DNA of 34,844 nucleotides from assembly GCA_018829845.1 (NCBI GenBank), contig JAHJTO010000041.1, forward strand, positions 1 through 34,844. The letters are read 5' to 3'. The position numbers and the translations under genes were made by a program. Of this stretch, positions 15,346 through 34,440 are shown piece by piece. The notes beneath the pieces are model-generated. The model searched no databases. It had not been told where the DNA came from and was given only the letters and a program-made list of their open reading frames with translations. This DNA is from Nanobdellota archaeon (GTDB lineage Archaea; Nanobdellota; Nanobdellia; Pacearchaeales; JAHJTO01). The first letter of the stretch is position 1, and the number at the start of each line of letters is the position of its first letter.

Positions 15346-15387
15346 CATGCCGAAAAAACGGCAGAGGAGGGGGTTTTTTCTAGCATG
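15346..15387 (+). promoter_or_regulatory. Leader hairpin of the CATGCC/GCATG family at the gltX start
   Basis: CATGCC-GAAAAAAC-GGCAGAGGAGGGG-GTTTTTTC-TA-GCATG forms 8 bp plus 5 bp. GAGGAGG is in the 13-nt loop. The final ATG is nt 15385-15387. Confidence 0.6.
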
Positions 15388-20012: not shown

Positions 20013-20048
20013 CTCTTAAAGTAATATTTTGCCTCTTTCTTTGCAAAA

Positions 20049-20396
20049 TCAATATACTTTTTTGCCTTTGATATTGAAAATTCCATTCCCATTATGCATG
20101 AAAGGTTTTTTCTTGATTCTTAAAACCAATTCAATATCCTCATTTTTTATTTTGAATCCATTTTTCAATTCAATCAACTCATTGTTAACATAGCCAAATG
20201 GCGAGGGGTTGAGATAATTTATAAAAAGATTTTTTGATTTCAGACTGTCCTCTGATAGGATTGATAAGGGGTGGGTTCTTGTTGTGGCTTTATTTTTGCT
20301 TAAATCTGAAAGCATTGAATGAGAGAAATAAACCTCCTTCGCAGGAATCTTCTCAACAAGAGGTATTCCTGTCTTTTTTGGATCTGCCTTGAACAA
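20049..20396 (-). CDS. Hypothetical protein (115 aa)
   Basis: ORF only. Confidence 0.4.
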   Translation of the reverse strand: MFKADPKKTGIPLVEKIPAKEVYFSHSMLSDLSKNKATTRTHPLSILSEDSLKSKNLFINYLNPSPFGYVNNELIELKNGFKIKNEDIELVLRIKKKPFMHNGNGIFNIKGKKVY

Positions 20397-20523
20397 ACTT
20401 TTGTATGATAAATAAGGGAGAGAAATGCTTAAATAATTAACTCATGGAACATGGGAAAACAAAAGAATGATTAATTTAAGAGATAATGGGTAGATATTTA
20501 GAGGTATAGAAGATCAATGAGAA

Positions 20524-20868
20524 TCAGTAGACATATTTTTTCTTGTTTTCATCGGAAATTTGGCCTAGATCAAAGTTCACAAGCTCTTCCAAGTCTTTCT
20601 TTTTGACAGATCCAAACATAAGTATGAATCTATTCAGGCTTATTGGCCGGTTGAATCTTATCCAAGGAAGTCCTCCGCCACAGCAAGCTCCGCAGGCATG
20701 AGGATTATAGTCTATTTTTCCGCTTTCCACCAGTTTCTTGAAGCTTTTTCCCTCATAGCCTTTTATTCTGCCGTAGAAGCTTTCTAGGGGTTCATCAACA
20801 TCAAACTCAATGCTGCTTATGTAGGTCTTTCCTTCTTCGTCCTGAACTGTTTCGATATTATTGAACAT
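20524..20868 (-). CDS. Hypothetical protein (114 aa)
   Basis: ORF overlapping the upstream gene end by 11 nt. Contains HACGACCGGG. Confidence 0.45.
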   Translation of the reverse strand: MFNNIETVQDEEGKTYISSIEFDVDEPLESFYGRIKGYEGKSFKKLVESGKIDYNPHACGACCGGGLPWIRFNRPISLNRFILMFGSVKKKDLEELVNFDLGQISDENKKKYVY

Positions 20869-21346
20869 TTTTTCCCCTATTCATGCCGGCCTTTATCCCC
20901 ATGATTTGTATTCTTGCAACATCATATTTCCTTGCAATATCTTCAGTGGTTTTGCCTTTGGAGAGATCATTTCTAATTTTTTCTTTCTCTTTATCACTAA
21001 GTTCTCGCTTGTTATTGTAGGTCCCCATAGTGATGTGGGCCTTTATGGCTGAGATCTCCTGCAGCTTTGCCTTTGGAATAAGCTTTTTGATTGCCTTTGG
21101 AAGATATCCTTGCTTAAGCAAATGAAAAATATCTTCATGAGTATAACCATTGTGCTTATGTGCGTAGTCTTTTCCATTTCCCGCCTTTGGAACATATGGC
21201 TGTGGATTTGGATCCACCCCTATGAGCTTTTCAAGTTTATTCAACTTCCCTTCAATGCTCTCTTCCATAGCCCGATTGGAACTTACATAGCTGTTAAATT
21301 CTGATCTAAGGCTTTTGACATATTGGTATAATTTTTTATAGTTCAT
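20858..21346 (-). CDS. Hypothetical protein with two related HTH-like segments
   Basis: KLQEISAIKAHITMG and RIQIMGIKAGMNRG are internal repeats; also KGKTTEDIARKYDV. 4-nt overlap with the upstream 851-aa gene. Confidence 0.5.
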   Translation of the reverse strand: MNYKKLYQYVKSLRSEFNSYVSSNRAMEESIEGKLNKLEKLIGVDPNPQPYVPKAGNGKDYAHKHNGYTHEDIFHLLKQGYLPKAIKKLIPKAKLQEISAIKAHITMGTYNNKRELSDKEKEKIRNDLSKGKTTEDIARKYDVARIQIMGIKAGMNRGKNVQ

Positions 21347-23898
21347 TCTTTCCTCCCAAGCTTAAAGCTCATGAGTCTCATGGGCGTTTCTCTGCTAACA
21401 TATGGCTTGTTCAATTTTGTTTGTATTGAATATTTGTTTTCATCGGCAAGATTGCTTACTATCTTTGTTAATATCTCTCCTTGATCTTCTGTACCGTACT
21501 GTTCTAGGAATCCATTGGAATTTTCTTCCGCAAGAGACATTCCGCCATTTCTAACAATTCCCTGGGCTCTTGGAGATTCATCAAGAGTAACAAAAAGAAC
21601 TGCATCATTTGCAATCTGGTTGTTTTTGAATAATGATCTTACAGTTTCTAAATTGTTTTTGCTGAGATAGCCATTGTAATCAAGATTTATGAAATCAAAT
21701 TTAAGATTTTTGTAGGCAGTACAATTGAGCGCATTATCGATTTGTCCGGAATAAAGATTAAGCCCGTTGAAAATTTCTCCGCCCTTTATTTTCTGATTTG
21801 AGGTGATAATACTTTTCATGGCATTATATGCTCTTGAATCTTTTTCAGCTATTAGGCTCTTCTTTGGATCTATCTTGAGTAATTGGGATAGGAAAATGTA
21901 GCTTCCAAAATGTGGTCCCTCTAGACCCAGATAATTCAATTTTTCTGGCCGTGGCAGACTATCTATTGCTTCTCCAAGCATCTTTTCCCTCATTTCATCC
22001 TTTGGATAATCTTTGAAGTCATTCATTTTCTTGTTTTTTATGCTTTCAACAGTATTGTAGCTTCTCTTTATTTCTGAAGAAGTGATTATTCCGAGCTCCT
22101 TCAAATCCCTTCCCACTGTGTAGATTTCCATTTTCAATCTCTTTGCTATGTCCACTCCGCTAAGTCCTCCAAATGCAAGCTCCTCTTCCAAGCTCCTTCT
22201 TACTTCTTTTCCTTTCTGGCTTCTCATCATGCTTTTGAAGAATCCATTGAAGGTCTTCCAGTAGTTCTTCCATGAATCCCCTATGTTCTTGCTACTCCAT
22301 GATCTTGCTGTTGGAACAGTTCCATGCTTATGGTAATGTGCCTTGAGATACTCAACACCCAAAGAGACAATCTCCTTTTTGGACAGATTACTAAATAAGT
22401 TGTTCTCCTGAAGATTCTCAGCGTCAGATCTGGAAAAAGTTATTCCCCTTAATTTGGCTAAGTAGTCTAGACCCTCCTGGGGAAGATAGACGCGTTTTCT
22501 TTTTCCCATTGGCTCTGTAATTATCATGTCCCCCAAAGACTGATCTACATTCTTGGAGTGGATGAATGTACACAGAGCCACCTTGTCCATTCCAAGAAGG
22601 GCTCCTGCTTCCTTCATAGTATATCTCTTTCTCTTGACTTCTTCAGAGGGTTTGTCTTCAGGAGTTGTATTTTGATCATTTGATTTCTGTTTTATGGTCT
22701 TTACACAACCCTTAAGATAATTGACTGCTTCTTCAGATATGAGCGGGGCCCCATCTTTCCATATCAGGAGTTTCTTAAAATTTTCATCATTGGATTCATG
22801 GACCCTTCTCCATATAGTAGAATAGTGTGTACCCAAAAGTTTTGCAGTTTCTTTGACACTGTACTCTTTCTTCCCAATTGGCTCTTTCTTTACAATTGGC
22901 CCCGACTCAATCTTCTCTTGAGATGTAATTAAAGGAGAATCATATGATTCCTGTGGAATATTGACAGATTGCAAAACTTCCTCAGGAGTTTCAGCATTCA
23001 TTTCAGCATAGGCAAGATATATTCTTGGTTCGAGATGAATATCCGATTTTCTAATTGATTCTTCAAGGTTGCTCTTTAACCTTGCAACGGTTTCCCCATT
23101 GAATGTGGCTTTTATGGAATATTTCATAAGAGCATTTTCCAATTGAGTTGCCTCAAAACCCTCCAGAGATTGATTTAAGATTTTTTGCATGGATCCATTT
23201 TCCATAGAGCAAGAATTTAGTGGGAAGATAACATCGATTTTATTTTCTGAGCCGTTGGAAACTTCATTTATTAAAATTGGGAATGATAAAGGATATTTTG
23301 TCCTATCTGAAAATCCTTTTGATTTTTGATAAGCTTCTGCTATCTCTGTCCTGAGCTTGATTTCTGTTTCTTTTATTGATTCGTCCAGTGCAGCATTTCT
23401 CTTTCTTTCTTTTCTTATTGCTTTTGATTTATATCCTTCTAGAATTTCCTTCTTTTTTTCAACTTTCTCCCAATTAACAGTATCGCCTTCATTGATGGAG
23501 GCATAGTCTTTAAACCATTTGTCAAAACATGAAGAAAGTGCAAATGACTTGGCCTCAAATGCTCCATTTACTGCCTTAAGATAGGTCTTAGAAGTCTCAT
23601 TCTTGTCTTTTGATAACATCAATTCTGCATCCATGGTAGTGACTATTCCAGTCAATCTTCCCTCAAGCCCGGATATGCATTCCTTGTCATGTTTGGAAAG
23701 AAGTTTCTCCTTCACAGAATCAAGTTCTGAGTTTATTTTTTCCATGTAGGCCTTTTTGGAATTTTCAACAAGTTCTCCAAGAGCTTTTACGTCCCCCTCA
23801 TATTTTTTATCAAGGGTTGCCTTTTCTTTCTCAAACTCTTCAATCTGCTTCTTGCTCTCTTCCCATACCTGCCTTGTTTTTGTTTCTAGTTCTTCCAT
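21343..23898 (-). CDS. Large multi-domain protein: N-terminal coiled-coil, at least three HTH modules, and a C-terminal Rossmann methyltransferase-like region
   Basis: HTH modules: YSVKETAKLLGTHYSTIWRRVHES, YTMKEAGALLGMDKVALCTFIHS and SGVDIAKRLKMEIYTVGRDLKELGI. The C-terminus has YLGLEGPHFG, LIAEKD, FDFINLDYNGY and AVLFVTLDE spaced like MTase motifs I, II, IV and V. Start set at the second Met (23898), which sits in a leader hairpin with AGGAG. Confidence 0.6.
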   Translation of the reverse strand: MEELETKTRQVWEESKKQIEEFEKEKATLDKKYEGDVKALGELVENSKKAYMEKINSELDSVKEKLLSKHDKECISGLEGRLTGIVTTMDAELMLSKDKNETSKTYLKAVNGAFEAKSFALSSCFDKWFKDYASINEGDTVNWEKVEKKKEILEGYKSKAIRKERKRNAALDESIKETEIKLRTEIAEAYQKSKGFSDRTKYPLSFPILINEVSNGSENKIDVIFPLNSCSMENGSMQKILNQSLEGFEATQLENALMKYSIKATFNGETVARLKSNLEESIRKSDIHLEPRIYLAYAEMNAETPEEVLQSVNIPQESYDSPLITSQEKIESGPIVKKEPIGKKEYSVKETAKLLGTHYSTIWRRVHESNDENFKKLLIWKDGAPLISEEAVNYLKGCVKTIKQKSNDQNTTPEDKPSEEVKRKRYTMKEAGALLGMDKVALCTFIHSKNVDQSLGDMIITEPMGKRKRVYLPQEGLDYLAKLRGITFSRSDAENLQENNLFSNLSKKEIVSLGVEYLKAHYHKHGTVPTARSWSSKNIGDSWKNYWKTFNGFFKSMMRSQKGKEVRRSLEEELAFGGLSGVDIAKRLKMEIYTVGRDLKELGIITSSEIKRSYNTVESIKNKKMNDFKDYPKDEMREKMLGEAIDSLPRPEKLNYLGLEGPHFGSYIFLSQLLKIDPKKSLIAEKDSRAYNAMKSIITSNQKIKGGEIFNGLNLYSGQIDNALNCTAYKNLKFDFINLDYNGYLSKNNLETVRSLFKNNQIANDAVLFVTLDESPRAQGIVRNGGMSLAEENSNGFLEQYGTEDQGEILTKIVSNLADENKYSIQTKLNKPYVSRETPMRLMSFKLGRKE

Positions 23899-23958
23899 GC
23901 TTAGAAATTCTCCTGCCAGAATTTCTGGCATGCAAAAAATCTTTGATTTTTTATCATG
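23896..23958 (-). promoter_or_regulatory. Two tandem family hairpins forming the leader of the 851-aa gene
   Basis: Sense strand: CATGAT-AAAAAATC-AAA-GATTTTTT-GCATG, overlapping CATGCC-AGAAATTC-TGGCAGGA-GAATTTCT-AA-GCATG. The final ATG is 23898-23896. Confidence 0.6.
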
Positions 23959-23987
23959 TTGCTTTTCCTATAGTATTGTATGCCTTC

Positions 23988-24031
23988 GGTGATTATATTC
24001 CCTTTTCATAAGATGTATATACATGCCTATG
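23988..24031 (-). promoter_or_regulatory. Shared island promoter module (copy upstream of the 851-aa gene operon)
   Basis: 35 of 44 positions are identical (hand alignment) to 26644-26687. Sense strand: CATAGGCATGTATATACATCTTATGAAAAGGGAATATAATCACC, with two TATA-like boxes. Confidence 0.55.
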
Positions 24032-24049
24032 TCGGCCTCAGATGCCTGT

Positions 24050-24409
24050 CTATTTTTTCTCCTCCTTGGGCTCAAATGTCACCCTTGCGGATTTTGTATG
24101 AATGCCATTGCAATAGGGGTTCATGGAAACTTCCCCGAATCTGCCAAGAAGATCATTGGACATGTTCAGCAGTTGTATTGTTGTTCCATCGAATGAACCA
24201 TCCACCATTTCAGCAAAAGGATCATTGACTTTTAATTCAAGTGTGGACTCTGCCTTTTTCTTTCCAAATTCCGAACCCTCTATTAATCTGACAACGGTCA
24301 TGCACAGCTCCCCATATTCAGGATTCTTATATTTCCCAGAACTATACATTTCTTTGGCAGTCTTAACCAGGTCCTTCAGTTCGTTTAGGTATTTTTTATC
24401 GTTTGTCAT
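24050..24409 (-). CDS. Hypothetical protein (119 aa)
   Basis: ORF with 4-nt overlap to the upstream gene. Confidence 0.5.
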   Translation of the reverse strand: MTNDKKYLNELKDLVKTAKEMYSSGKYKNPEYGELCMTVVRLIEGSEFGKKKAESTLELKVNDPFAEMVDGSFDGTTIQLLNMSNDLLGRFGEVSMNPYCNGIHTKSARVTFEPKEEKK

Positions 24410-25191
24410 TTTTTCTCCTTCGCCTTGTTCAAAACATTTGATAATTTGCAGTATTCACTGTGGAAATTATCAAGCTCTTCCGAAGTCAGTTTGACTTCAT
24501 CTTTTTCATTAAGACGGCTTACTGTTTTATTCATCTTTTCCAGTATTGACAGAGCCTCAGCTTCGTCTTTCTTATCTGAAAATAATTCTTTAACCAATCC
24601 TTGCGCTTTTTCCACAAGGTTTTCGTATTTGGGCAACTGGCTCAGATAGTCAGAAAACTTCTTTTTGTCTTTCTGCATTACCAGATTCAATCCCTGGGTG
24701 TCTATATCTACGGGCAGGTAGAGCATCATGATTTCATTGGCTGTTTGAGAAGGATTCAAAACTTGGAATCCTTTTTTTGCCCAATATTCTCTTTGTTTAG
24801 GTTTATGAAAATTAGATTCGACATTCACATTTACCTTCTCGACATTCTGTCCATACTTTTTTGCAAGATAGTTTACCAGGGTGTTGGCAAAATTCTCTGC
24901 TATTTCCTTAGGGACTGGACCGAAGTCTCTGGAGTCTTTGTTGACTGTCAGGATATTGTCTTCCAAAATGAAGTAGCCCCCTCCAACCACTCTGCTCCTT
25001 GGAACCCTATTGGCATCTGCGATTTTCTTGTGGAATTCGTAGATATTCTTGTTCGCACAGTAAAATTCAAGCTGATTCGGCTTTTCAGTGGTGCAGACTA
25101 TGAATTTACTTTGTAATGTGGGCTCTCCAGTCATGTTTACGAGTATTCCTTCAAGATTATTGGTCTGTTTTTTGTTTTGTTCTATTTTCAT
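24406..25191 (-). CDS. Hypothetical protein (about 262 aa)
   Basis: Start moved to the Met (MKIEQNKKQ) just after the lipoprotein stop and preceded by GGGGG. No domain recognised. Confidence 0.5.
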   Translation of the reverse strand: MKIEQNKKQTNNLEGILVNMTGEPTLQSKFIVCTTEKPNQLEFYCANKNIYEFHKKIADANRVPRSRVVGGGYFILEDNILTVNKDSRDFGPVPKEIAENFANTLVNYLAKKYGQNVEKVNVNVESNFHKPKQREYWAKKGFQVLNPSQTANEIMMLYLPVDIDTQGLNLVMQKDKKKFSDYLSQLPKYENLVEKAQGLVKELFSDKKDEAEALSILEKMNKTVSRLNEKDEVKLTSEELDNFHSEYCKLSNVLNKAKEKK

Positions 25192-25192
25192 T

Positions 25193-25453
25193 TTATTTTC
25201 CCCCGTCGTATGGCTGCTCTTTTGTAAGGCCGCTATTCTCAGAATCAGTTCCTTCATTGAAGGAGTTTTGAAATGCCCTCAATTCTGGATCCTCCTGTAT
25301 TAATGTTGAAATTTCTGAGTCTGCTGGAGCATAGGCTATTTGCTTCTGCTGTGTCTTTTGTGTCTTCTGTTGAATTCCAGCACACCCCCCTAGAAAAATG
25401 GCTGCAGCTAGTGCAAGGCCATAAATTTTATTTGCTTTAGTTTTGTTTTTCAT
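25193..25453 (-). CDS. Small predicted lipoprotein
   Basis: MKNKTKANKIYGLALAAAIFLGGCAG is a signal peptide followed by the lipobox L-G-G-C. Confidence 0.6.
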   Translation of the reverse strand: MKNKTKANKIYGLALAAAIFLGGCAGIQQKTQKTQQKQIAYAPADSEISTLIQEDPELRAFQNSFNEGTDSENSGLTKEQPYDGGK

Positions 25454-26121
25454 TTTTCAACCTCCAAAGCTTCCTCTAGATAGGGAGTTACGAGAATTGG
25501 CTGCTCAAGCTTTTTGTTCAATTTTCCAAGAGATCTTAGAATCATTGATCCGTCTCTTGACATTATGGCTTCCAAAAAAGAATCATTTTGAAGCAAGGCC
25601 TTTACAGTTTTCGGATTTTTAGGAATGTCTAGAGAATATCCTGAATCTTGGGGAGAACTTCCAGTATATTTACTATTTCCTCCGTAGAATATGCTGTATC
25701 TCGCAACTAGAAGGCCAGATCCCTTTAATTCTTGAACATTATGTTCAGAAGGTTCATTGCATCCCGAAATATCAAGATCTGCGAATACCTTGCAGGGAAG
25801 AACGGTCTTCTCAAGAGTACTAAGCATTACCACATTTCCTTTCTTGGTATTTACTCTGTCTTGACCATGGAGGTTTTTAGGATCAAATCCATATTTCTTC
25901 TGCTGAATTTTAGCTGCTTCAAGAGGTTTCATTCCCTTGGGCATTTCTTCAGGAAATAGAGTATAGGCTTCCTCAAGGGTCTTCAGAGTATCTGTAAGAT
26001 AGGGCGTCGATATTGAGACAACGTATATCTTTTTTTCAGAAAATTTATTGGATATTTTAAAAAAGTTATTCCTATATTTCTTGAATTCATTCAACCCTTC
26101 ACATTCTTTACAGTCTTTCAT
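25450..26121 (-). CDS. Hypothetical protein (223 aa)
   Basis: ORF with 4-nt overlaps on both sides. Confidence 0.5.
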   Translation of the reverse strand: MKDCKECEGLNEFKKYRNNFFKISNKFSEKKIYVVSISTPYLTDTLKTLEEAYTLFPEEMPKGMKPLEAAKIQQKKYGFDPKNLHGQDRVNTKKGNVVMLSTLEKTVLPCKVFADLDISGCNEPSEHNVQELKGSGLLVARYSIFYGGNSKYTGSSPQDSGYSLDIPKNPKTVKALLQNDSFLEAIMSRDGSMILRSLGKLNKKLEQPILVTPYLEEALEVEK

Positions 26122-26615
26122 TTTTTGCTCTCCTTCTTGATGTCCTTTAGGATTTTCTCAAGAGTGTAATTTCCGCCGCATTCGCAGCTCATTATCTCAG
26201 CATTTTTGTTTCCAATCTCGCGGATCAATGCCTTCTTTTCGTAGGAATTGCATTTACACATGACATAGGTTATCTTTTCTGCGGGAATATCCTTTGTCAT
26301 TTCTATGGCCCCTTCAGCTCCATGGGCTCCTACGTATAGGTAGACATGATTAAGCTGCGGCAGAATTGGCTTTATTCCTTCCAAAAGATAGCTTAGCGTG
26401 CTTTTTCTGATTCTCTCTGCCATTGCAGAATTTTCGCTACCTGCCACGGCTCTTTCAGATCGATGGCCATTCTGCATAAGGAGCACTTTCTTTCCAGGAT
26501 AGTTCGTCCATCCGTTCTCATACTGCTGCGGATTACCTATGCAGTTGTATGTAATTATGGCTATCTGCTCCACTGCACGGTCTATTGACTTTTTGATTTG
26601 TTTTTTGTTTGTCAT
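26118..26615 (-). CDS. Hypothetical protein (165 aa)
   Basis: ORF with CAGGAG upstream; first gene after the promoter module. Contains CKC..CEC cysteines. Confidence 0.5.
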   Translation of the reverse strand: MTNKKQIKKSIDRAVEQIAIITYNCIGNPQQYENGWTNYPGKKVLLMQNGHRSERAVAGSENSAMAERIRKSTLSYLLEGIKPILPQLNHVYLYVGAHGAEGAIEMTKDIPAEKITYVMCKCNSYEKKALIREIGNKNAEIMSCECGGNYTLEKILKDIKKESKK

Positions 26616-26643
26616 TTTATTCTCCTGTAATATACATGTGTCT

Positions 26644-26687
26644 GGAAATTATATTCCCTCTTCATAGGGAATATATACTTCCCTATG
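26644..26687 (-). promoter_or_regulatory. Shared island promoter module (copy upstream of the 26615 operon), containing a 9-bp perfect inverted repeat around a TATA box
   Basis: CATAGGGAA-TATATAC-TTCCCTATG (26663-26687) plus GGGAATATAATTTCC on the sense strand. Homologous to 23988-24031 and 31849-31870. Confidence 0.55.
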
Positions 26688-27141
26688 CTGCCCCTCCTGA
26701 GTATGCAATGAATTGCAGAGCATGCTTTATCGGGCGATAGTCTTTTCTCAAAAGCCCGTACAGCTTTTCCTTTATTTCATCCAAAAGGGCAGGCTTGCTT
26801 TGATAATCAGCATTGAATACCTGCTCTCTTTCTTTTTTTACAACCCTTCCAGTTTTATCTCTCTGAGTTATACCGTAGTCACTGTGCCAAACCTGTCCAC
26901 TGTCATCAACAATGAAGTGAACCATGTTATTCCAAGGAAGATGATTCTTTCTTTCCACTATCACCTGGCAGGTTTTTGGGATTTTGTAGGCCGGATTTCC
27001 CCCGCATACTTTGTATGACACTACGATCTTGTCGTTTGGAGCCCCATCTATGCAAGCCTCCTTCAAGGTTGTCCAATGGGAATTTCCCAGATTGAACAAT
27101 TCCTTTATGGTTATTTTTTCGAGGTTTATTTTGTGTCCCAT
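26683..27141 (-). CDS. Hypothetical protein (152 aa)
   Basis: ORF only. Confidence 0.5.
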   Translation of the reverse strand: MGHKINLEKITIKELFNLGNSHWTTLKEACIDGAPNDKIVVSYKVCGGNPAYKIPKTCQVIVERKNHLPWNNMVHFIVDDSGQVWHSDYGITQRDKTGRVVKKEREQVFNADYQSKPALLDEIKEKLYGLLRKDYRPIKHALQFIAYSGGAA

Positions 27142-27214
27142 TTTGTTTTCCTTTAATCACTTTGAAGTGATGCCATAATACTGTATAGAATAGAAATATA
27201 TAAGGATTATTCAT

Positions 27215-27304: not shown

Positions 27305-28246
27305 ATGAAACGGAAGATAATCAAGCTAGGAACGGCCACGCTCGTAGCGAGCCTTCCCGCGAAGTGGATAAGGGAGTTCGGATTGAAGCAGGGAGACTAT
27401 CTCGAAGTCAATGAGAAGAAGGGAGATCTTGTTCTGAGCACTGAGAAAGAAATGGCAAAGGACGAGACGACTATAGATATAACCAAGTTCAACACCAAAC
27501 TTGCCCTATACAGACTGGCAGGAGCATATGTAGCTGGCTACAATAAAATAGAGATATTACATGAGCAACATATCAAAGAGTACACTACTGGAAAAAATAG
27601 AAAGACTTCTGAGTTCATACAAAGCATGATTGGGAAATTCATAGGAATTGAGATAATAGAACAGTCTGAAAAAAAGACTGTGCTGAAAGATCTGAGTGGA
27701 GTCTCTGAGACTGATGCAGACAATATCCTAAGGAGAGCATTTCTGCTGACAAAATGGCTGGCTCCAGAATGCCTCGAGGCCATAAAGAAAAGAAACAAGG
27801 AGGATTTGGGGGAGATAGAAAATAAGGCTAGGAATGTTTACAAATTTCTTTATTTTTACAGAAGACTTCTTAATAAGAAAGGATACAAAGATTTCAGCAA
27901 AACGCCGATAATGTATCACAATACTTATTTAATAGGAGATATTGCAAGAATACTCCATTCATTGGCACATGAAACTGCAGAATTCAAGAAAGAATATTCA
28001 AAGTCTGCGCTGGATATATTCGCAAAGGTTGTTGTTTTGATAGATAAATTGGATAATCTATTTTTCGACTTTAGCAATGAAAAGGTGTTGCATATAATGA
28101 ATGAAAGAGAAGCAATAATCAAAAAAATAAAAGAGGATAGAAATAAATTCTCAAAGGAAGATGGATATCTTTATGCCAATATGGATTTCGTTGTAAAATC
28201 AGTATCGCATCTTGAAGAGGGAAGATTCCAGCTGGAGACTAATTAA
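27305..28246 (+). CDS. AbrB/SpoVT-domain plus PhoU-like regulator
   Basis: MKRKIIKLGTATLVASLPAKWIREFGLKQGDYLEVNEKKGDLVL is an AbrB swapped-hairpin domain. It is followed by a helical PhoU-like region, an architecture common in archaea. Confidence 0.75.
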   Translation: MKRKIIKLGTATLVASLPAKWIREFGLKQGDYLEVNEKKGDLVLSTEKEMAKDETTIDITKFNTKLALYRLAGAYVAGYNKIEILHEQHIKEYTTGKNRKTSEFIQSMIGKFIGIEIIEQSEKKTVLKDLSGVSETDADNILRRAFLLTKWLAPECLEAIKKRNKEDLGEIENKARNVYKFLYFYRRLLNKKGYKDFSKTPIMYHNTYLIGDIARILHSLAHETAEFKKEYSKSALDIFAKVVVLIDKLDNLFFDFSNEKVLHIMNEREAIIKKIKEDRNKFSKEDGYLYANMDFVVKSVSHLEEGRFQLETN

Positions 28247-28252
28247 TTTTAA

Positions 28253-29107
28253 CTATTTCTTTTCGAGAATTTGAGACAACCGGGTGAATTTCTTTATTTT
28301 TACGGCATAGTTCAACTTTTCAGAATCACTGGGTTCATAATTAAAGGCGATGACTTTTATTCCCAGATTATGGGCTCCATCATCTTCATCAACATCATGT
28401 CCTAGGAAAACGACATCTTCTTTTTTGAGATTATATTTCTTCAGAGCATGTTCGTAGAATCTGGGATCTGGCTTGCAGTATCCAAGATCCTTTGAGGTTA
28501 TAACATCCTTGATTCCAGTCTTGATGCCCATGCTTTCCATCCATTGCCTTGCATCTTCCCCAGTCCGATGGCCATCTGACAAAACTATGATATCTATCCC
28601 TTTTTTATGAAGCTCCTCCAGGGTTTCCAAAACTCCTTCAAAGGGAACATTTCTTATTTTCTTTTTTCTTTCCCCAAGCCAGCCCATATAACCTGGATAA
28701 TATGACGGAATCTTCAATTCCTTGAAAGTATCCTCGTAACTCATTTCCCTGGTGTATCCGGGTTTAACCATGGCCAGGTCTCTCTTGGCTGAATAAACTG
28801 CCCTGAAATGCTCAGGAGTTATAGAATACTTGAATGAATCATTGGAGAGATCATTCTCTGCACTGCTCTTGTATTCAAGCTTGCCTTTTGAAGGATAATC
28901 TAGCTTTCCGAGAGTTTTTTGTCTGTCTTCCGTGTCTAATATTGAATTTATGTCCTTTTTTCTCGCCATAAGTCCCTTTTCTTCAAGATATGATCTGAAT
29001 GCCCCCCTGAGATCTGAATCATCAAAGAGGATGTTGCCTGCGTCTGTGAGTATTGCCTTCACATATATCTTTGGCTGCTTATCGTGTTTATTATTCTGTT
29101 TCTCCAT
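28253..29107 (-). CDS. HAD-superfamily hydrolase-like protein
   Basis: KAILTDAGNILFDD (motif I-like), IIVLSDGHR, and FLGHDVDEDDGAHNLGIKVIAF (motif IV-like). Start set at the Met (MEKQNN) adjacent to the upstream stop. Confidence 0.6.
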   Translation of the reverse strand: MEKQNNKHDKQPKIYVKAILTDAGNILFDDSDLRGAFRSYLEEKGLMARKKDINSILDTEDRQKTLGKLDYPSKGKLEYKSSAENDLSNDSFKYSITPEHFRAVYSAKRDLAMVKPGYTREMSYEDTFKELKIPSYYPGYMGWLGERKKKIRNVPFEGVLETLEELHKKGIDIIVLSDGHRTGEDARQWMESMGIKTGIKDVITSKDLGYCKPDPRFYEHALKKYNLKKEDVVFLGHDVDEDDGAHNLGIKVIAFNYEPSDSEKLNYAVKIKKFTRLSQILEKK

Positions 29108-29108
29108 A

Positions 29109-29804
29109 TTATATCGTGTATTTCTCTCCGTTTTCATAGCTGAGTTCGAGCTTGATTTCTGGGATCATCGCCATCTCATCCCGATTTATGAGTTTGGTTA
29201 TCGCCTTTCCGGAGGGGATCGCGACTATGTTCACTAATTCTCTCTCTTCCCTTGGAGTCTTGTTCTTCTCTCCGAGCAGATTTTTTGTAAAATCGTTCAG
29301 CTGTCCATCAGGAAATCCCTGAGAAAGGCATGCGGTTGATGGCATGAGCACAGACCTGTTTGTCAAAAGAATGCATACCGTTTCAAGATCATGCAAGGAC
29401 ATCTTCGCAATATTCGGCTTATATGGTAGATTTAATTTTAAGGTATACAGGTTTATCAAAGAATCGTAAGCATTTCTAATCTGTGGCACTCCGTGATCTA
29501 ATTCCTTTTCGGCAATGCCCATTTTTTCAGCCTTCTCGAAATATTCTCTCAGATAGCCTTTTTCAAGCACTCCTCTGAACAAGGTTTCCTGATTTATCAT
29601 GTCCTCGATTCTCTCTTTTTGCAGTTTTTCCCTCAATCCTTCCATGAAACTTGCATTTAGGGATTCTCTTGCAACTTCCAACTCCTTGTAATCTGCCAAT
29701 CCAGATTCTTGCTCGGGAGAGATCCTTCCCCCTCTAAGAGACTCTGCTCCTTGGAATGCCGAATCTTCACTGTCCTCTGGGTTTTGATTTTCCATTTTTG
29801 ACAT
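29109..29804 (-). CDS. Hypothetical protein sharing an N-terminal motif with the upstream gene
   Basis: GAESLRGGRISPEQESGLADYKELEVARESL aligns with GAETLREKRIAAEKDSGLLDRRALDLAEDAL of ORF 29767-30678 (14 of 31 identical by hand). Confidence 0.5.
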   Translation of the reverse strand: MSKMENQNPEDSEDSAFQGAESLRGGRISPEQESGLADYKELEVARESLNASFMEGLREKLQKERIEDMINQETLFRGVLEKGYLREYFEKAEKMGIAEKELDHGVPQIRNAYDSLINLYTLKLNLPYKPNIAKMSLHDLETVCILLTNRSVLMPSTACLSQGFPDGQLNDFTKNLLGEKNKTPREERELVNIVAIPSGKAITKLINRDEMAMIPEIKLELSYENGEKYTI

Positions 29805-30678
29805 TTATTTTGGATGAGTATTGCACGCACGGAGGAAGTGATATGTCTACATATTCTTTCCCAAATTTAGTTTCGGCAGGATTTTTACCTTCAGGATTTG
29901 TCACGTAAATATTTCCAGAGTCAGCAACTGATTTCAGCTCTGTCAGGAATTCAGTAGTAGTCTTATAGATGTCCGAATAAAACGCTTTTATCGCTTTTTC
30001 ATGTCCCTTCAAAGGAAAACAGACCTTTGATGTCAGACCATTCACTCCGTCTTTCAATGCAAAAAGGTCATGATATTCTATAGATTTATTTTTTGCAGTG
30101 GTAAGAACCTTGTCGCTTAGGTTTGTGACTTTTGTGGAAATAATCTTCCCAGTAGAATCAGACAGAATTCTCACCAGGTAAGGCACTCTTGAAAAGCCCA
30201 TCATGCCTGTTGACTCATAATTCAATTTCAAATCGAAATCTATCTTTTGTGTTTTGACATCCAAGGATTTGCCATTTTCCAATAAAGCACCATCAACTTT
30301 GATGGAATAATCCTTCACTGGGGAGTGCTTTGAGTCGATAGAATCCTTAAGATCTCCCTCCAACTGAGTGTAATTTGCAAGATCACGGTTGCTTAAAGAG
30401 TTGTATTTCTTTATGACATTATTTCTTTGGAATATTGCTGTCAGGCACATTGCGAACATTCCAGCCGCAAGTCCCCTATTTACCCATTTCAGAATATTGT
30501 ATTTCTTGCTTATCTTGGCTTTTTCTTCCTGTTCTACTCTAAGAGCATCCTCTGCAAGGTCTAATGCTCTACGATCAAGAAGCCCAGAGTCCTTCTCAGC
30601 AGCAATTCTCTTCTCCCTCAAAGTCTCCGCTCCATCCATCGCGATTCTTTCAATCTCTGCTATGTCCCCGTTTTCCAT
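29767..30678 (-). CDS. Single-pass membrane protein: shared N-terminal motif, one TM helix, ~200-aa outside domain
   Basis: TM segment GLAAGMFAMCLTAIF. The N-terminal motif is paralogous to ORF 29109-29804. Confidence 0.5.
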   Translation of the reverse strand: MENGDIAEIERIAMDGAETLREKRIAAEKDSGLLDRRALDLAEDALRVEQEEKAKISKKYNILKWVNRGLAAGMFAMCLTAIFQRNNVIKKYNSLSNRDLANYTQLEGDLKDSIDSKHSPVKDYSIKVDGALLENGKSLDVKTQKIDFDLKLNYESTGMMGFSRVPYLVRILSDSTGKIISTKVTNLSDKVLTTAKNKSIEYHDLFALKDGVNGLTSKVCFPLKGHEKAIKAFYSDIYKTTTEFLTELKSVADSGNIYVTNPEGKNPAETKFGKEYVDISLPPCVQYSSKINVKNGKSKPRGQ

Positions 30679-30679
30679 T

Positions 30680-31837
30680 TTATTGTTTATAGGCCTCCTT
30701 GCAAGTCTTCAGGCCGAGAGAGGCAAATGCCTTCATGTTTTTCTGTCCATTGAGTATTGTATTTTGTGCCAGTTTAACATCAATTCCTGGCCTTCCTTTG
30801 CTGAGAATCCCTTGGTTAATCTCGACGTGCCTTCTCTCAATATCTGCATAGATCCCATACTGATGGGCTTTTGCCAAGGTGTAAATATGCTTGAATTCTT
30901 CCAGGGAACCTACAGGCATTTTATTCGCAGCCAGAGCATTGTAGAAGTTTTTCACAAGCTCTCCTTCTTTGTCTGCATTCTTTGGGTTGTCAAATCTCAA
31001 CCCCATGGCGATTCGGGTTATGTCTGTCTGGGGGGCTCCGAGCATTGCCCATTCCCAGTCTATGAGAGATACAATATCTTGTCCTTTCAAATGCATGTTT
31101 CCGAGGTGAAGGTCATTGTGTATCAGACCTTTGCCATAGTTATTCAATGATTTAGTATACTGAGTAAGGGATTCTACAACCCCTTGAACATAATCTTTTT
31201 CTGCCAATTCTGGGATCTTCCATTTAGAATGATCGCTAGCATAATTGTTTGTAGAGAGCAGCTTTATTTCGTCAGGACTTAGGCTGATGGAATGTATGTC
31301 AGATACAGTTTTTGTTATTTTATCCAAAATAAGCTTCATCTCAGCAGGATTGTTGGAGATCTTCTGAATATGATTTTCTACGGAGATCTCAGAGGGACTG
31401 AAAAGCTCATAGGCAATAACACGGCCGTTATTGAATATGCATTTAGGGGTGGCAGGATAACTCAGGCTTCCTCTAACTATCTCAGGCACATAGAGCTCCA
31501 CAGCGTGCTTGCTATCATCAAGGCTTCTTCTCTTTACAAAGCAGATTAGCGGAACGCTAGGCAATGATTCGAATGTCATTTTTGCAAATTTACATCTAGG
31601 GTGGTTCTTTGATATGTTTTCTCCATTTTCTTTGTCTTCTTCAACCTTATAATGGCCATTTCTTATGTCCTCCTTGAGGGGTCCGACTTGATCGTCAGAG
31701 ATTACCTTTTCCCGAAGCAGCCTTGAGATATCCATAGCTATTAAGGCAGCCTTGAAACCTGGGAAATCGGGACCAATGAATTCCTCGAGTGGAATGTCTA
31801 TGCCATATTCTCTTAATGTATTGTTTTTATTAACCAT
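30680..31837 (-). CDS. Aminoglycoside/choline-kinase-like phosphotransferase (APH family fold)
   Basis: Catalytic loop GLIHNDLHLGNMHL (HxDxxxxN) followed by SLIDWEWA (the D-W-E metal-binding motif typical of this family). Confidence 0.7.
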   Translation of the reverse strand: MVNKNNTLREYGIDIPLEEFIGPDFPGFKAALIAMDISRLLREKVISDDQVGPLKEDIRNGHYKVEEDKENGENISKNHPRCKFAKMTFESLPSVPLICFVKRRSLDDSKHAVELYVPEIVRGSLSYPATPKCIFNNGRVIAYELFSPSEISVENHIQKISNNPAEMKLILDKITKTVSDIHSISLSPDEIKLLSTNNYASDHSKWKIPELAEKDYVQGVVESLTQYTKSLNNYGKGLIHNDLHLGNMHLKGQDIVSLIDWEWAMLGAPQTDITRIAMGLRFDNPKNADKEGELVKNFYNALAANKMPVGSLEEFKHIYTLAKAHQYGIYADIERRHVEINQGILSKGRPGIDVKLAQNTILNGQKNMKAFASLGLKTCKEAYKQ

Positions 31838-32018: not shown

Positions 32019-33056
32019 ATGGAAATGGCAAGACATTCCCCTGGATACTGGGCTGGAGAAAACATAGAGAAGGAATACTATAAAAAGAAAGAGGAAAAGG
32101 GAAGAATCCCCCGGGTAAGAGAATGGCTCATGGGAGTTCGTGCAATAAATAATGGAAAATATCTTGATGGAATAAATAATTACAAAGCATTTCTTAAACA
32201 TCTGAATGAAAGGACAGACTATCTTTGCATTGATCCGATATTCCCAAAAGAAGCATTCGAAGCGGCATATTGTGAATGTAAGGAGGAATTGGGCTGGGTG
32301 AAACCTTTGAGAAAAGAATTTGAGTACAGATATCCTGAAGTTATGAAAGAGATAAGGAGGGGAGGGTTTCTAAAGGAAGTGAGAAGTTACAAACAATTTA
32401 TCGAGCATATGGGTGAATCTGCAAATCATGCGCCAAATTATTGGACGGGCCATCCCCAAAGAATAAGAGAATCTTACTATGCGGATAAAAAAAAGTATGG
32501 ATTTGTTACACAAAAAGGGTTTGCAAAAAGGCATCCAGGAGAATGGGATGCAATATTTAGCAGGAGATATAATAAAAATATTCACAACTGGAACCAATTC
32601 AAGCATTCTTTGGGAGAAAGAGTTTGGAAAAGAGCACCAAATGGATCAATTACACTTGAGAGATGCACAAAAAAATATTATGAATGTAAAAAGAAGATCA
32701 AAAAGAAAGAGGGAAGAGCACCATTTTACAAAGAATTTGAAGGGATGTGTGGGGGATCAGCCAAATGGATAGAAAAAAATATTGGATGGAATAATTTTCT
32801 GAGATCACAGGGAGAAAAAATAAATAAGGAATGCAATAGGGATGATGAAAAACTAAAAAAAGGAAAAGATGTATGGACAAAAGAAGATTTCATAGACGCA
32901 TACACTTTTCTGGAGAGGGAAAGGGGGAGAAGACCCTCAAGGAATTATTTTATTAATTTTTATGGTCCAGAATCACTTAAACAGATTAAAAAGGGAAAAA
33001 TTGAGGGAATAAAAAACTGGAATGATCTGGAAAGAATTGTTAATGGAATGAATTAA
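32019..33056 (+). CDS. Protein built from about five tandem ~60-aa repeats resembling homing-endonuclease-associated repeats
   Basis: The repeat ends recur: ..NNYKAFLKHLNE, ..SYKQFIEHMGE, ..NWNQFKHSLGE, ..GWNNFLRSQGE, ..NWNDLERIVNG. Each is preceded by W/Y..E....Y....K...GR.P. Confidence 0.6.
   Translation: MEMARHSPGYWAGENIEKEYYKKKEEKGRIPRVREWLMGVRAINNGKYLDGINNYKAFLKHLNERTDYLCIDPIFPKEAFEAAYCECKEELGWVKPLRKEFEYRYPEVMKEIRRGGFLKEVRSYKQFIEHMGESANHAPNYWTGHPQRIRESYYADKKKYGFVTQKGFAKRHPGEWDAIFSRRYNKNIHNWNQFKHSLGERVWKRAPNGSITLERCTKKYYECKKKIKKKEGRAPFYKEFEGMCGGSAKWIEKNIGWNNFLRSQGEKINKECNRDDEKLKKGKDVWTKEDFIDAYTFLERERGRRPSRNYFINFYGPESLKQIKKGKIEGIKNWNDLERIVNGMN
32853..32926 (+). repeat. 74-nt tract identical to 34234-34307
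   Basis: CTAAAAAAAGGAAAAGATGTATGGACAAAAGAAGATTTCATAGACGCATACACTTTTCTGGAGAGGGAAAGGGG is present in both paralogs, while flanking sequence is clearly diverged. Confidence 0.85.
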
Positions 33057-33069
33057 ATGGAAATTTAGC

Positions 33070-34440
33070 ATGGTAGATCTTGAAAAGCATATTGATGAAA
33101 TAGTAAGATTGTATGTAGTTAAAAAGAAGGGGTGCGCACTTATAGGAAAAGGGTATGGGGCGAAGAGGTATGCTATAGGGAAGATTCTTAGAAATAGGGG
33201 AATTGAATTGAAAAAGAGGGGAAAGTATTCTGAAATGAATCGCTTAACTGACTGGAAAAAAGAGTATGAACTGCATCCTGAATGGAAGGGGAAGAATTCA
33301 TCGCAGATAGCATATGAGACTGAATCAGGACTACTTAATTTTTATAGGGCATTTAGAAAATGGGTTCAAAAAAACATTAAAGATGAAAATCTGAGGAAAA
33401 GATCTTCTTGTGAGGTTTTAGGATTGAGGGAGAATTTGACTCAGGAAAGAATTGACCAGCGTTTTTTTGATCTTTATAAGAGTCTTGACAGGATTCCAAC
33501 AGTAAGGGAAGTGGGGGCTGCCTGTGGGGGTGTGATGACGGCAATATTCAGGGGAGAATATTTCAAGAGCATAACAACCTATCTAGGCTATCTCAGGCAC
33601 CATGGACTTTATGATCCATCTGAGGAAAAGGATCTTACCCGGGAGGAAATGAAGGCTGAATTTTATAAATGCAAGAAAAAACTGGGGAGGGATCCCCTCA
33701 GAAAGGAGATATTCCACAGCTGTCCTGGATTTGAAAGGGCGCTTAAGAATGAAAGATATTCTAGAGGAGTAAATAACTATCGGAAGTTTATGATAAGTAT
33801 TGGTGAAAAAGCAAATCATGTTGAGAGGAACTACTGGAAGGGACATCCTAGGAGAATAATCAGGGCATACTGGACAGAGAAAAAATTGAATAAGAATTTG
33901 AAGAGAAAAGATTTCGCAGCCAGATGTTCCGGAGCATGGGATGTCATACAAAACGGAGAATTCAAAAAAGGAATTACAACATGGAATGGATTCAAAAGAT
34001 ATCTTGGGGAGGAGATAAAATATCCCCATGATCGAACATGGTCTCCTGAAAAGGTACTGAAGGCATACTATGATCAGAAGAAAGAGTTAGGAAGAAATCC
34101 AACCTGTAAAGAATTTATAGCCAGAAACGGAGGAGCAATAAACACTATAAGGAGAAGAACCTATGATCCCTCTATCTCAACATATAATGGATTCCTAATC
34201 TCCCTTGGGGAAAAGGTGATGCGAAAGATATCTCTAAAAAAAGGAAAAGATGTATGGACAAAAGAAGATTTCATAGACGCATACACTTTTCTGGAGAGGG
34301 AAAGGGGAAGAAAACCTCCAAGAGATATGTTCATGAATTATTATGGTCAAGAACCTTTCAAGCAGATGAAAAAAAGAAAAATTGATGGAGTAAGAAACTG
34401 GGGTGATCTGGAAAGAATTGTTAATAGCACTCAAAGATAA
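33070..34440 (+). CDS. Paralog of the preceding gene: N-terminal HTH-like module plus about six of the same ~60-aa repeats
   Basis: Repeat ends: TTYLGYLRHHGL, NNYRKFMISIGE, TTWNGFKRYLGE, STYNGFLISLGE, RNWGDLERIVNS. The N-terminus GCALIGKGYGAKRYAIGKILRNRGIELKKRG resembles the modules of ORF 19314-20012. Confidence 0.6.
   Translation: MVDLEKHIDEIVRLYVVKKKGCALIGKGYGAKRYAIGKILRNRGIELKKRGKYSEMNRLTDWKKEYELHPEWKGKNSSQIAYETESGLLNFYRAFRKWVQKNIKDENLRKRSSCEVLGLRENLTQERIDQRFFDLYKSLDRIPTVREVGAACGGVMTAIFRGEYFKSITTYLGYLRHHGLYDPSEEKDLTREEMKAEFYKCKKKLGRDPLRKEIFHSCPGFERALKNERYSRGVNNYRKFMISIGEKANHVERNYWKGHPRRIIRAYWTEKKLNKNLKRKDFAARCSGAWDVIQNGEFKKGITTWNGFKRYLGEEIKYPHDRTWSPEKVLKAYYDQKKELGRNPTCKEFIARNGGAINTIRRRTYDPSISTYNGFLISLGEKVMRKISLKKGKDVWTKEDFIDAYTFLERERGRKPPRDMFMNYYGQEPFKQMKKRKIDGVRNWGDLERIVNSTQR
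34234..34307 (+). repeat. 74-nt tract identical to 32853-32926
   Basis: See the partner copy. A second identical 22-mer, TGATCTGGAAAGAATTGTTAAT, occurs at 33023-33044 and 34404-34425. Confidence 0.85.

Follow-up and report, generated by a model that had tools for sequence, protein, structure and literature searches.

What joins a kinase, two proteins of different build that begin with the same short segment, and a phosphatase-like protein in one archaeal operon? The question is raised by four genes in a 34,844-nucleotide contig of a Nanobdellota archaeon (JAHJTO010000041.1); this whole stretch is here called the window. The initial annotation had proposed a phospho-switch: the shared peptide is modified by the kinase and restored by the HAD enzyme, linking an extracellular domain to a cytoplasmic effector. 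Of this proposal the link between segment and kinase holds up, in three loci; the Ser/Thr that was singled out does not, and the HAD eraser is doubtful. Our best, though tentative, explanation is that a DPANN-like archaeon from groundwater carries a protein module which is restricted to its lineage and centred on the kinase.

Operon organization

The four genes are tightly packed between positions 28253 and 31837, all on the minus strand:

31837..30680, minus strand: APH-fold kinase, 385 aa
30678..29767, minus strand: P2, 303 aa; N-terminal motif, hydrophobic helix and a C-terminal domain of ~220 aa
29795..29109, minus strand: P3, 228 aa; N-terminal motif and a soluble, mostly helical domain
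29107..28253, minus strand: HAD-IA-like protein, 284 aa; C1 cap insertion of ~130 aa
31861..31866, minus strand: TATATA element, possible archaeal TATA box, read from the sequence ~26 nt upstream of the kinase ATG

Kinase and P2 are separated by 1 nt, P2 and P3 overlap by 29 nt, and P3 and the HAD gene are again 1 nt apart. The open reading frame coordinates bear out the operon and the spacing as first described. The P3 ATG at 29795 yields MENQ, which aligns with MENG of P2; an upstream ATG at 29804 is a possible alternative start. The start of the HAD gene is the same in public gene calls for the source contig, and the protein is probably co-expressed with the others. If the TATATA element is a TATA box, its distance from the kinase ATG would imply a leaderless or near-leaderless transcript; a sigma-70 promoter scan is not applicable to an archaeon. 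A Pfam search of the flanking genes showed no transporter or other pathway gene near the operon. PADLOC anti-phage defence profiles had zero matches among the four proteins, and the PHROGs phage families gave only a generic HAD match and a weak kinase match.

The shared N-terminal motif

P2 and P3 begin with the same element:

30541..30678, minus strand: motif in P2, residues 1-46; codon of the invariant Ser31 at 30586-30588
29658..29795, minus strand: motif in P3, residues 1-46; codon of the invariant Ser31 at 29703-29705

The two segments are identical at 20 of 46 positions (BLASTP with composition adjustment, E=3e-8). The shared 31-residue pattern reported earlier is real; we count 15 identities in it instead of 14. 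A degenerate DNA pattern of the motif matches twice in the window against 0.00 expected (100 shuffles). True copies score 74-86 bits with a motif HMM. Everything else in the window and contig remains at or below 5 bits, and metagenome decoys selected by pattern reach 20 bits at most.

Across six copies the consensus is M-E-x7-E-x2-A-x2-G-A-E-x-[LI]-R-x2-R-x3-E-x-[DE]-S-G-L, with ten invariant positions (M1, G16, A17, E18, R21, R24, E28, S31, G32 and L33). At each of the nine from G16 to L33 the codon varies among the copies, with 2-4 synonymous codons in use; Ser31, for example, appears as TCT, AGC, TCG and TCA. It is thus the protein sequence that is under selection. The Ser/Thr after G-A-E to which attention had been drawn varies between the six copies (T, S, A, N, S, S); the invariant residue is Ser31 in E-x-[DE]-S-G-L. 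The positions that are invariant in the first four copies cluster on one helix face (resultant 0.49, p ~0.012). Its residues (E, A, A, R, R, E, S) give it a polar, charged character. A low-confidence AF2 model of P3 (pLDDT 57) places a helix at residues 6-22, a break at ~23-32 and, beginning at residue 33, a long helix. Going by this model, Ser31-Gly32 could equally be structural, as a helix cap at the predicted break.

Occurrence in other loci

How widespread is the motif? An exhaustive hmmsearch (HMMER) of 1.84 billion (1.84e9) representative proteins returned only P2, P3 and two further proteins, P0005 and P0006. Outside the window the motif occurs in two other loci only, L003/L007 and L006. 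Both have the same gene order, an orthologous kinase followed by a motif protein with a TM helix and then a soluble motif protein, with overlapping stop and start codons (11 and 17 nt in L003, 4 and 4 nt in L006). The six copies in three loci include none without a kinase. The initial annotation had considered that the motif might be found beside a kinase nowhere else; in both other loci the kinase lies directly upstream. The link between motif and kinase is no chance feature of the window. All three loci are orthologs of one another, and L007 even shares the upstream HNH_repeat gene; the association is therefore one evolutionary event, not an independent recurrence. Adjacency of the HAD gene is seen in the window alone, as the contigs of the other loci end before that position.

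Within a locus the two motif copies share 18, 22 and 27 of ~40 residues, between orthologs 15-19. For the pair in L006, DNA identity across the motif-coding segment is 89%; all other pairs are at ~55%. This shows that the two L006 copies have been homogenised by gene conversion.

P2 and P3 beyond the motif

The initial annotation had assigned a TM helix to P2. The candidate is the following segment:

30427..30486, minus strand: P2 residues 65-84, WVNRGLAAGMFAMCLTAIFQ, probable single-pass TM or membrane-associated helix (KD19 = 1.32)

P2, P0005 and P0006, the three P2-type proteins, all have a hydrophobic segment with basic flanks at this position, which speaks for the assignment. Against it, the P2 helix is short and of marginal hydrophobicity (a crude Hessa-scale sum amounts to ~+4 kcal/mol). 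K and R are more frequent on the N-terminal side of the segment in P0005 and P0006. The membrane topology of P2 is, in this sense, presumptive.

The C-terminal domain of P2 comprises ~220 aa with two conserved cysteines, C220 and C284; searches of Pfam, NCBIfam, PDB, PHROG and PADLOC matched nothing in the protein. The ortholog P0005 is 34% identical. P0006 retains motif and TM helix, yet bears a C-terminal domain with no relation to the one in P2. In one locus, then, a P2-type protein has exchanged its ectodomain but not its motif and TM helix. The homology of P3 to the third gene of L006 covers residues 1-73.

The APH-fold kinase

The kinase matches Pfam APH (PF01636) over residues 163-286 with 40.2 bits (gathering cutoff 23.2, E=4.2e-10). 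Both signatures noted at the outset are present, the catalytic loop HxDxxxxN as H240-N-D242-L-H-L-G-N247, and D260-W-E262; they are invariant in three kinase orthologs and in a distant Nanoarchaeota kinase. The candidate catalytic residues K102, E114, H240, D242, N247 and D260 are invariant in the three orthologs; the kinases of the other loci are 56% and 52% identical. With its catalytic motifs intact and invariant the kinase looks active. K102 (in CFVKR) and E114 (in VEL) are candidates for the N-lobe Lys/Glu; the N-lobe lies outside the Pfam match. In a PDB search APH(2'') aligns from residue 102 (E=0.03). The AF2 model (pLDDT 39) is too poor for judging the N-lobe or the substrate groove.

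Is it a small-molecule kinase, as had been considered from the beginning? None of the NCBIfam equivalogs for such enzymes (ThiK, MTR kinase, APH(9), APH(2''), ThrB_alt, GntI) reaches its cutoff; each match is more than 10-fold below. The best is thiamine kinase with 24.9 bits against 299; MTR kinase has 17.9 against 275, and the remaining small-molecule kinase models stay at or below 22.5 against 255-680. The lanthipeptide kinase models are also below cutoff (LanKC 17.0 bits against 575, LxmK 14.7 against 315). By these profile scores the kinase belongs to no known small-molecule kinase equivalog. Its best PDB match is the kinase core of PneKC (8w7a; E=1e-6 with a three-sequence profile), a likeness confined to ~65 residues of the catalytic core; ACAD11 and APHs reach E=0.01 or weaker in the same comparison.

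The HAD protein

The last protein is a HAD protein by Pfam (HAD_2 65.8 bits, cutoff 23.8, E=7e-18; Hydrolase 54.3 bits, cutoff 26.4, E=3e-14); the HAD_2 alignment starts at residue 127 of a 294-aa open reading frame, i.e., at 117 in the 284-aa numbering. Matches to NCBIfam TIGR02253 (CTE7) and YjjG/TIGR02254 are below cutoff. Among solved structures, the Pyrococcus HAD scaffold PH0459/3u26 is the closest. Motifs II (VLSDG), III (CKPDP) and IV (GHDVDEDD, the usual G-D reading G-H-D) are readable and align with chains derived from 3u26/PH0459. Motif I is degenerate, and in this respect the HAD-like motifs of the initial annotation need qualification:

29030..29044, minus strand: HAD motif I, D22-A-G-N-I in place of D-x-D-x-T, read from the translation

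Its context is K-A-I-L-T-D22-A-G24-N-I26-L-F-D-D. The register is presumably set by the flanking pattern KAhhxD....LhD[DS], typical of HAD-IA; we take it from this pattern, not from a structure. The nucleophile Asp is kept, the +2 Asp is replaced by Gly and the +4 Thr by Ile. In the HAD mechanism it is the +2 Asp that donates a proton to an alcohol leaving group, Ser for example. Further, motif I (residue 22) and motif II (~residue 176) are separated by an insertion of ~130 residues, a C1 cap typical of small-molecule HADs. Known HAD protein phosphatases of the FCP/SCP, Eya and MDP-1 type are mostly capless (C0) or have a minimal cap, admitting macromolecular substrates. A large C1 cap sets the present protein apart from these types. 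The proposal that it erases phosphate from a protein is weakened by these features and appears doubtful.

Interpretation

Which arrangement accounts for these observations? Our tentative preference is for a docking module, similar to a leader, by which two client proteins are linked to the kinase and probably serve as its substrates. This module would be the N-terminal ~45 residues common to P2 and P3, a helical recognition element that is exchangeable between proteins and plays a part like that of a leader peptide. Both the membrane-anchored protein, whose outer domain varies, and the soluble one could use it to engage one partner, most likely the APH-fold kinase, which is translated just before them. 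We infer that the motif binds this kinase and that the kinase then probably phosphorylates its clients; the best candidate site would be the invariant Ser31. This reading is favoured by the rarity of the motif in a constant kinase context and the translational coupling in all three loci, and by selection at the protein level, one-sided helix conservation, interchangeable copies and the modularity of the ectodomain. The intact kinase motifs and the peptide-kinase domain of PneKC as best solved relative would fit, as would, by analogy, CaoK, a leader-recognising APH-like Ser/Thr kinase. On the other side, the PneKC likeness covers only ~65 residues, and three orthologous loci count as one event. 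The polar, charged helix face could equally mediate pairing of P2 with P3, and the location of Ser31-Gly32 at a predicted helix break may speak against a phosphorylation site. The small-molecule-type cap and degenerate motif I of the HAD protein also count against this reading.

The pairing of P2 with P3 leads to the next, possible though rather unlikely, explanation. The N-terminal helices would pair homotypically and hold soluble P3 at the membrane beside P2, and kinase and HAD protein would have a small molecule as substrate instead of the motif (salvage or activation followed by phosphate removal). E, R and small residues on the conserved face suit a self-complementary helix-helix contact, and a homotypic module tolerates gene conversion between its copies. 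The nearest families of the C1-capped HAD-IA protein are small-molecule enzymes (YjjG nucleotidase, CTE7, PH0459). It shares with these hydrolases (3u26, 1x42) the Rossmann-like core, motifs II-IV and the position of the C1 cap, yet differs in scores below the family cutoffs, an unusually long cap and its motif I, which is poor for a small-molecule phosphatase too. Pairs of APH-fold kinase and HAD phosphatase are known from small-molecule pathways, e.g., MtnK/MtnX of methionine salvage, and here as well both are encoded in one gene cluster. Unlike in such pathways, the MTR kinase model fails by far, other pathway genes or a transporter are absent nearby, and the two motif proteins have no counterpart. 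The weak NCBIfam matches do include thiamine kinase, GntI and MTR kinase; none comes near its cutoff. The constant translational coupling of the kinase to two motif genes is left unexplained.

The complete phospho-switch of the initial annotation, in which a phosphate written on the shared peptide by the kinase is removed again by the HAD protein, and a signal passes from the P2 ectodomain to P3 as effector, is improbable. It profits from all evidence on the kinase/motif link, from the invariant Ser31 in an acidic context, from a HAD gene that begins 1 nt past the P3 stop with nucleophile Asp and motifs II-IV in place, and from a variable ectodomain that resembles sensor-domain swapping. In the stressosome and partner switching, RsbR paralogs, RsbT kinase and RsbX phosphatase combine one module with variable domains, and Ser/Thr phosphorylation sets the state. 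The logic is alike, with paralogs bearing one module on variable domains and a co-encoded kinase and phosphatase-like gene. This is an analogy only: the kinase is APH instead of GHKL, the phosphatase-like protein HAD instead of PP2C, the module a 45-aa helical tag instead of STAS, and there is no sequence relation. Pfam and NCBIfam detect no GHKL kinase, STAS or PP2C domain in the four proteins. The lack of +2 Asp and +4 Thr, the large cap, a HAD linkage seen in the window only and the variable residue after G-A-E all count against the switch.

Could the system be a RiPP-like, leader-guided maturation, with the N-terminal segment as a true leader and the kinase phosphorylating Ser/Thr in a core, followed, as in lanthipeptides of classes III-V, by elimination of the phosphate or by other chemistry? 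CaoK, a stand-alone APH-like kinase, phosphorylates Ser/Thr in a substrate that it recognises by the N-terminal leader (PMC9486802). As in the class V systems CaoK/LxmK (PMC9486802), a stand-alone APH-family kinase lies beside genes for leader-bearing proteins, on which it is here proposed to act. PneKC, a class III lanthipeptide synthetase, is an 866-aa lyase-kinase-cyclase fusion (PMC11330476), and its kinase domain (8w7a/8w7l) has the catalytic core h-H-x-D-L-H-L-x-N ... I-D-W-E-x-A in common with ours. A LanKC kinase domain as best PDB relative, the weak matches to LanKC and LxmK, a leader-like segment common to both supposed substrates and the CaoK precedent speak in favour. Nevertheless, this is very improbable, as three of the four defining features already fail. 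Lyase and cyclase are missing: Pfam and NCBIfam detect neither OspF/HopA1 nor LanC in kinase, P2, P3, HAD protein or flanking genes, and none of the other PneKC domains is present. The supposed precursors are folded proteins of 228-303 aa, one membrane-anchored, from an archaeon, in contrast to peptides of <110 aa. They have no Cys/Ser/Thr-rich core and come with neither protease nor exporter. The LanKC and LxmK scores are far below cutoff.

Finally, a chance or compositional likeness of the two N-termini, conceivable in a short segment rich in E, R and A, is ruled out by BLASTP, the shuffles (2 matches against 0), four further copies with codon turnover, and the gap in HMM scores.

Taken to its end, the preferred reading of a docking module on kinase clients would describe a minimal transmembrane signalling device of DPANN archaea, so far undescribed. 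The kinase would read a helical N-terminal leader of 45 residues on a membrane-anchored receptor with exchangeable ectodomain and on a soluble effector and phosphorylate the invariant Ser31; the non-canonical HAD protein, devoid of the general-acid Asp, would serve as modulator or phosphate acceptor. This extension is speculative, and we consider it unlikely as a whole. If true, it would mean leader-guided phosphorylation of whole proteins, not of RiPP peptides.

The operon and its relatives

The analysis establishes a conserved, translationally coupled unit which consists of one active-looking APH-fold kinase and two proteins with a common N-terminal helical tag of about 45 residues (P2 and P3). 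In the window a HAD-fold gene follows.

Genes of the operon
31837..30680, minus strand: APH-fold kinase, 385 aa
30678..29767, minus strand: P2, 303 aa
29795..29109, minus strand: P3, 228 aa
29107..28253, minus strand: HAD-fold protein, 284 aa

Counted from these starts, the genes are separated by 1 nt, overlap by 29 nt and are again separated by 1 nt, in line with the initial annotation. The P3 start at 29795 yields 'MENQ...', in one-to-one alignment with the 'MENG...' of P2. Gene calls made independently for the public contig agree on the HAD start. A TATATA element precedes the kinase ATG by ~26 nt; going by sequence, it would fit a leaderless operon transcript in an archaeon. The source contig, 51.5 kb long, derives from a groundwater metagenome; GC content is ~37%. 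A DPANN-type archaeon is the probable source. In reads of three groundwater runs the identical strain alone was present, with low coverage, and informative variants were absent.

The operon with its tag-sharing pair, initially described from the window, was confirmed, and two further loci extend the observation. In L003, a Logan contig of 2.3 kb, the P2-type protein P0005 comes after a 57%-identical kinase; the next ORF begins MESKNNDSLEDLASNGAENIREDRCNFEVESGLIEYQATE, then the contig ends. In its sister contig L007 the divergent upstream HNH_repeat gene is syntenic too. In L006, a JGI contig of 1.9 kb, the P2-type protein P0006 comes after a 52%-identical kinase fragment and is followed by a third gene beginning MSEENPDNLEGITPYGAESIRDMRISAERESGLIAHKASELENAVL. 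The order is the same in 3/3 loci: kinase, tagged protein with a hydrophobic helix, tagged soluble protein. Neighbouring genes of both foreign loci overlap at their stop and start codons, by 4-17 nt. All three loci are orthologs of one another; therefore the association of kinase and tag is a single conserved arrangement, not an independent recurrence.

The system is very rare and unannotated. P2 and P3 have no match in Pfam, NCBIfam, PHROG, PADLOC or PDB, and neither a defence family (PADLOC) nor a phage family (PHROGs) was recognised. With P2 and P3 as queries, a word index of 5.8 billion clusters returned the two proteins themselves and nothing else. An exhaustive HMMER search over 1.84 billion representatives, using a profile built from the whole of P2 and the N-terminus of P3, yielded four proteins: P2, P3, P0005 (1e-42) and P0006 (2.9e-5). 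Across about 15 billion predicted proteins the system occurs at three loci, all in uncultivated organisms. A six-copy tag HMM, with which true copies score 74-86 bits, detected no further copy in about 45 kb of this genome. A degenerate DNA pattern of the tag had no match in IMG/VR viral contigs; its five matches in JGI metagenomes are due to chance, being located in high-GC internal ORFs which score 12-20 bits with the HMM.

Genomic surroundings

Other features of the window
3177-4802, plus strand: NifU/IscU-like Fe-S scaffold, split by an intein that includes a homing endonuclease of LAGLIDADG type (Pfam: NifU_N 9e-34, LAGLIDADG_3 6e-12, Intein_splicing)
8086-10216, plus strand: 535-aa HMA + DsbD_2 membrane protein, its 3' end overlapping a 190-aa ORF
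15385-17382, plus strand: class Ic Glu/Gln-tRNA synthetase with a ~200-aa Lys-rich N-terminal extension
20000-27200, minus strand: about ten co-oriented ORFans, including an 862-aa protein with weak HTH-like matches
27305-28246, plus strand: 313-aa protein, N-terminal AbrB/SpoVT (MazE-like) DNA-binding domain and about 260 aa without assignment
32019-33056 and 33070-34440, plus strand: tandem paralogs with 'homing endonuclease associated repeat' (PF18780) units

The gene of the AbrB/SpoVT protein, which may be a local regulator, is convergent with the HAD gene with 6 nt between the stop codons. The PF18780 paralogs have near-identical C-termini (KKGKDVWTKEDFIDAYTFLERERGR...); in the related contig an ortholog with these repeats (L007:1-741, minus strand) takes the equivalent place, divergent from the kinase gene and upstream of it. 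The ORFan run has no significant Pfam, PHROG or PADLOC match; it consists of 'dark' genes specific to the lineage or is what remains of a mobile element. The 190-aa ORF corresponds to no more than the last third of a P-type (copper-type) ATPase, perhaps as a remnant after truncation or splitting, or else through an unusual fusion or a frameshift. In the tRNA synthetase the Pfam catalytic-domain match starts at residue 204, leaving the extension uncovered. An Elp3-like radical-SAM protein is also encoded in the window, and a diphthamide-synthase gene on the same contig. Outside the window this contig carries inteins in both GyrA and GyrB (L001:1-4237), i.e., with NifU three inteins in about 50 kb of archaeal genome.

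The N-terminal tag

The N-termini of P2 and P3 share 20/46 identical residues (BLASTP E=3e-8); beyond this the two proteins have nothing in common. Chance similarity is excluded. Ten positions are invariant over six copies: M1, G16, A17, E18, R21, R24, E28, S31, G32 and L33. The Ser/Thr at position 19, stressed in the initial annotation, is not among them and varies (T, S, A, N, S, S). Between G16 and L33 nine residues are invariant, and each is encoded by 2-4 different codons, e.g., Ser31 by TCT, AGC, TCG and TCA, and Arg21 by AGG, AGA, CGA and CGG. Therefore, conservation operates at the protein level, and conservation of DNA or RNA as such was rejected.

Positions invariant in the first four copies gather on one side of an α-helix (resultant 0.49; matched by 1.2% of random position sets). 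An AlphaFold2 model of P3 of low confidence (pLDDT 57), used as a hint for secondary structure only, has a helix at 6-22, a break at ~23-32 and a long helix from 33. Foldseek with this model against the PDB gave no match with E below 3.8, and a PDB profile search with the tag none below E=0.9. A 'Dpy-30 motif' match of P3 (E=0.46) and a wHTH-like 'SGLV-RR' match were dismissed as noise.

Tags within a locus are at least as similar to each other as orthologous tags are. In L006 the tag-coding 5' ends of the two genes (975-1115 vs 1673-1819) share 89% DNA identity including a 34-nt identical run; every other pair is at about 55%. Such similarity points to recent gene conversion within the paralog pair and shows that either copy can functionally stand in for the other. 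P0006 shares tag and hydrophobic helix with P2, yet carries an unrelated C-terminal domain; hence the module is portable.

In P2 the hydrophobic segment spans residues 65-84, a short stretch of only moderate hydrophobicity. It is found at the same place in 3/3 P2-type proteins, with Lys/Arg richer on its N-terminal side, and each C-terminal domain contains exactly two Cys. The likeliest predicted topology is single-pass, N-in/C-out.

The kinase

The kinase passes the Pfam APH threshold (40.2 bits vs cutoff 23.2) and possesses H240-x-D242-x4-N247 and D260-W-E; its ATP-binding pair may be K102 and E114. Two orthologs (56% and 52% identical) preserve every one of these residues. The kinase lies outside every curated small-molecule kinase family; thiamine kinase, the NCBIfam model with the highest score, reaches 24.9 bits vs a cutoff of 299. 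Only one match among solved structures is clear by sequence: PneKC, a class III lanthipeptide synthetase, in its kinase core (E=3e-5 for the sequence alone, 1e-6 with a three-ortholog profile; next matches 0.01 or weaker). This match spans only ~65 residues and is a hint, not a classification. The PneKC structure is PDB 8w7a (PMC11330476). An AlphaFold2 model of the kinase from a two-sequence alignment was unusable (pLDDT 39).

Word-indexed searching with the kinase returned one ortholog cluster; the nearest species-level genome match is a Nanoarchaeota MAG. Beyond a Zixiibacteria match, a genome-contig scan yielded nothing but a distant APH kinase from a Nanoarchaeota MAG (L004), whose surroundings are unrelated and free of tag genes. 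A metagenome scan gave no match, and tblastn of plasmids and phages a single 24%-identical 'phosphotransferase'. Viral contigs had no match to kinase or HAD protein.

Possible functions of the tag

The most economical explanation is that both proteins use the tag for recognition by, or docking on, a common partner, for which the kinase is the obvious candidate. Ser31 would then be the best candidate acceptor; alternatively, it may cap a helix. We advance docking with the kinase as partner tentatively. The closest precedent is CaoK, a stand-alone APH-like kinase which binds its substrate at the N-terminal leader and phosphorylates Ser/Thr (PMC9486802). The main rival, which we consider rather unlikely, is that the tags pair together and tether P3 to P2, and that kinase and HAD protein act on a small molecule.

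The initial annotation envisaged a complete switch: the kinase writes and the HAD protein erases a phosphate on the shared peptide, linking an extracellular domain and a cytoplasmic effector. This interpretation is supported in part: the link between kinase and tag stands, in three loci; the Ser/Thr at position 19 does not. As a whole, the switch appears improbable. The HAD protein clearly has the HAD fold (HAD_2 7e-18, Pfam), and its closest relatives are HAD-IA small-molecule hydrolases and the Pyrococcus PH0459 scaffold. Motifs II-IV are present, but motif I (K-A-I-L-T-D-A-G-N-I-L-F-D-D) is degenerate: the nucleophile Asp is retained, the +2 Asp, the general acid/base, is Gly, and the +4 Thr is Ile. 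In HAD enzymes the +2 Asp protonates alcohol leaving groups, and HAD protein phosphatases are typically capless. Here ~130 residues between motifs I and II form a large cap. Both properties disfavour a phospho-Ser eraser. Further, linkage of the HAD gene is seen in the window only; the contigs of L003 and L006 end before the region where it would follow. A lanthipeptide-like maturation system fails in 3/4 defining features.

Significance

Should the kinase dock on and phosphorylate the tag, leader-peptide-guided APH-fold kinases, hitherto known from bacterial lanthipeptide biosynthesis, would extend to whole proteins and to archaea. A short, interchangeable tag and a dedicated kinase make a readily testable recognition pair. 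The rarity of the system limits its general importance unless the mechanism proves new. DPANN archaea live attached to hosts and, as far as we are aware, have very few recognisable signal-transduction genes; if true, docking of the kinase on the tag would provide a first handle on their signalling.
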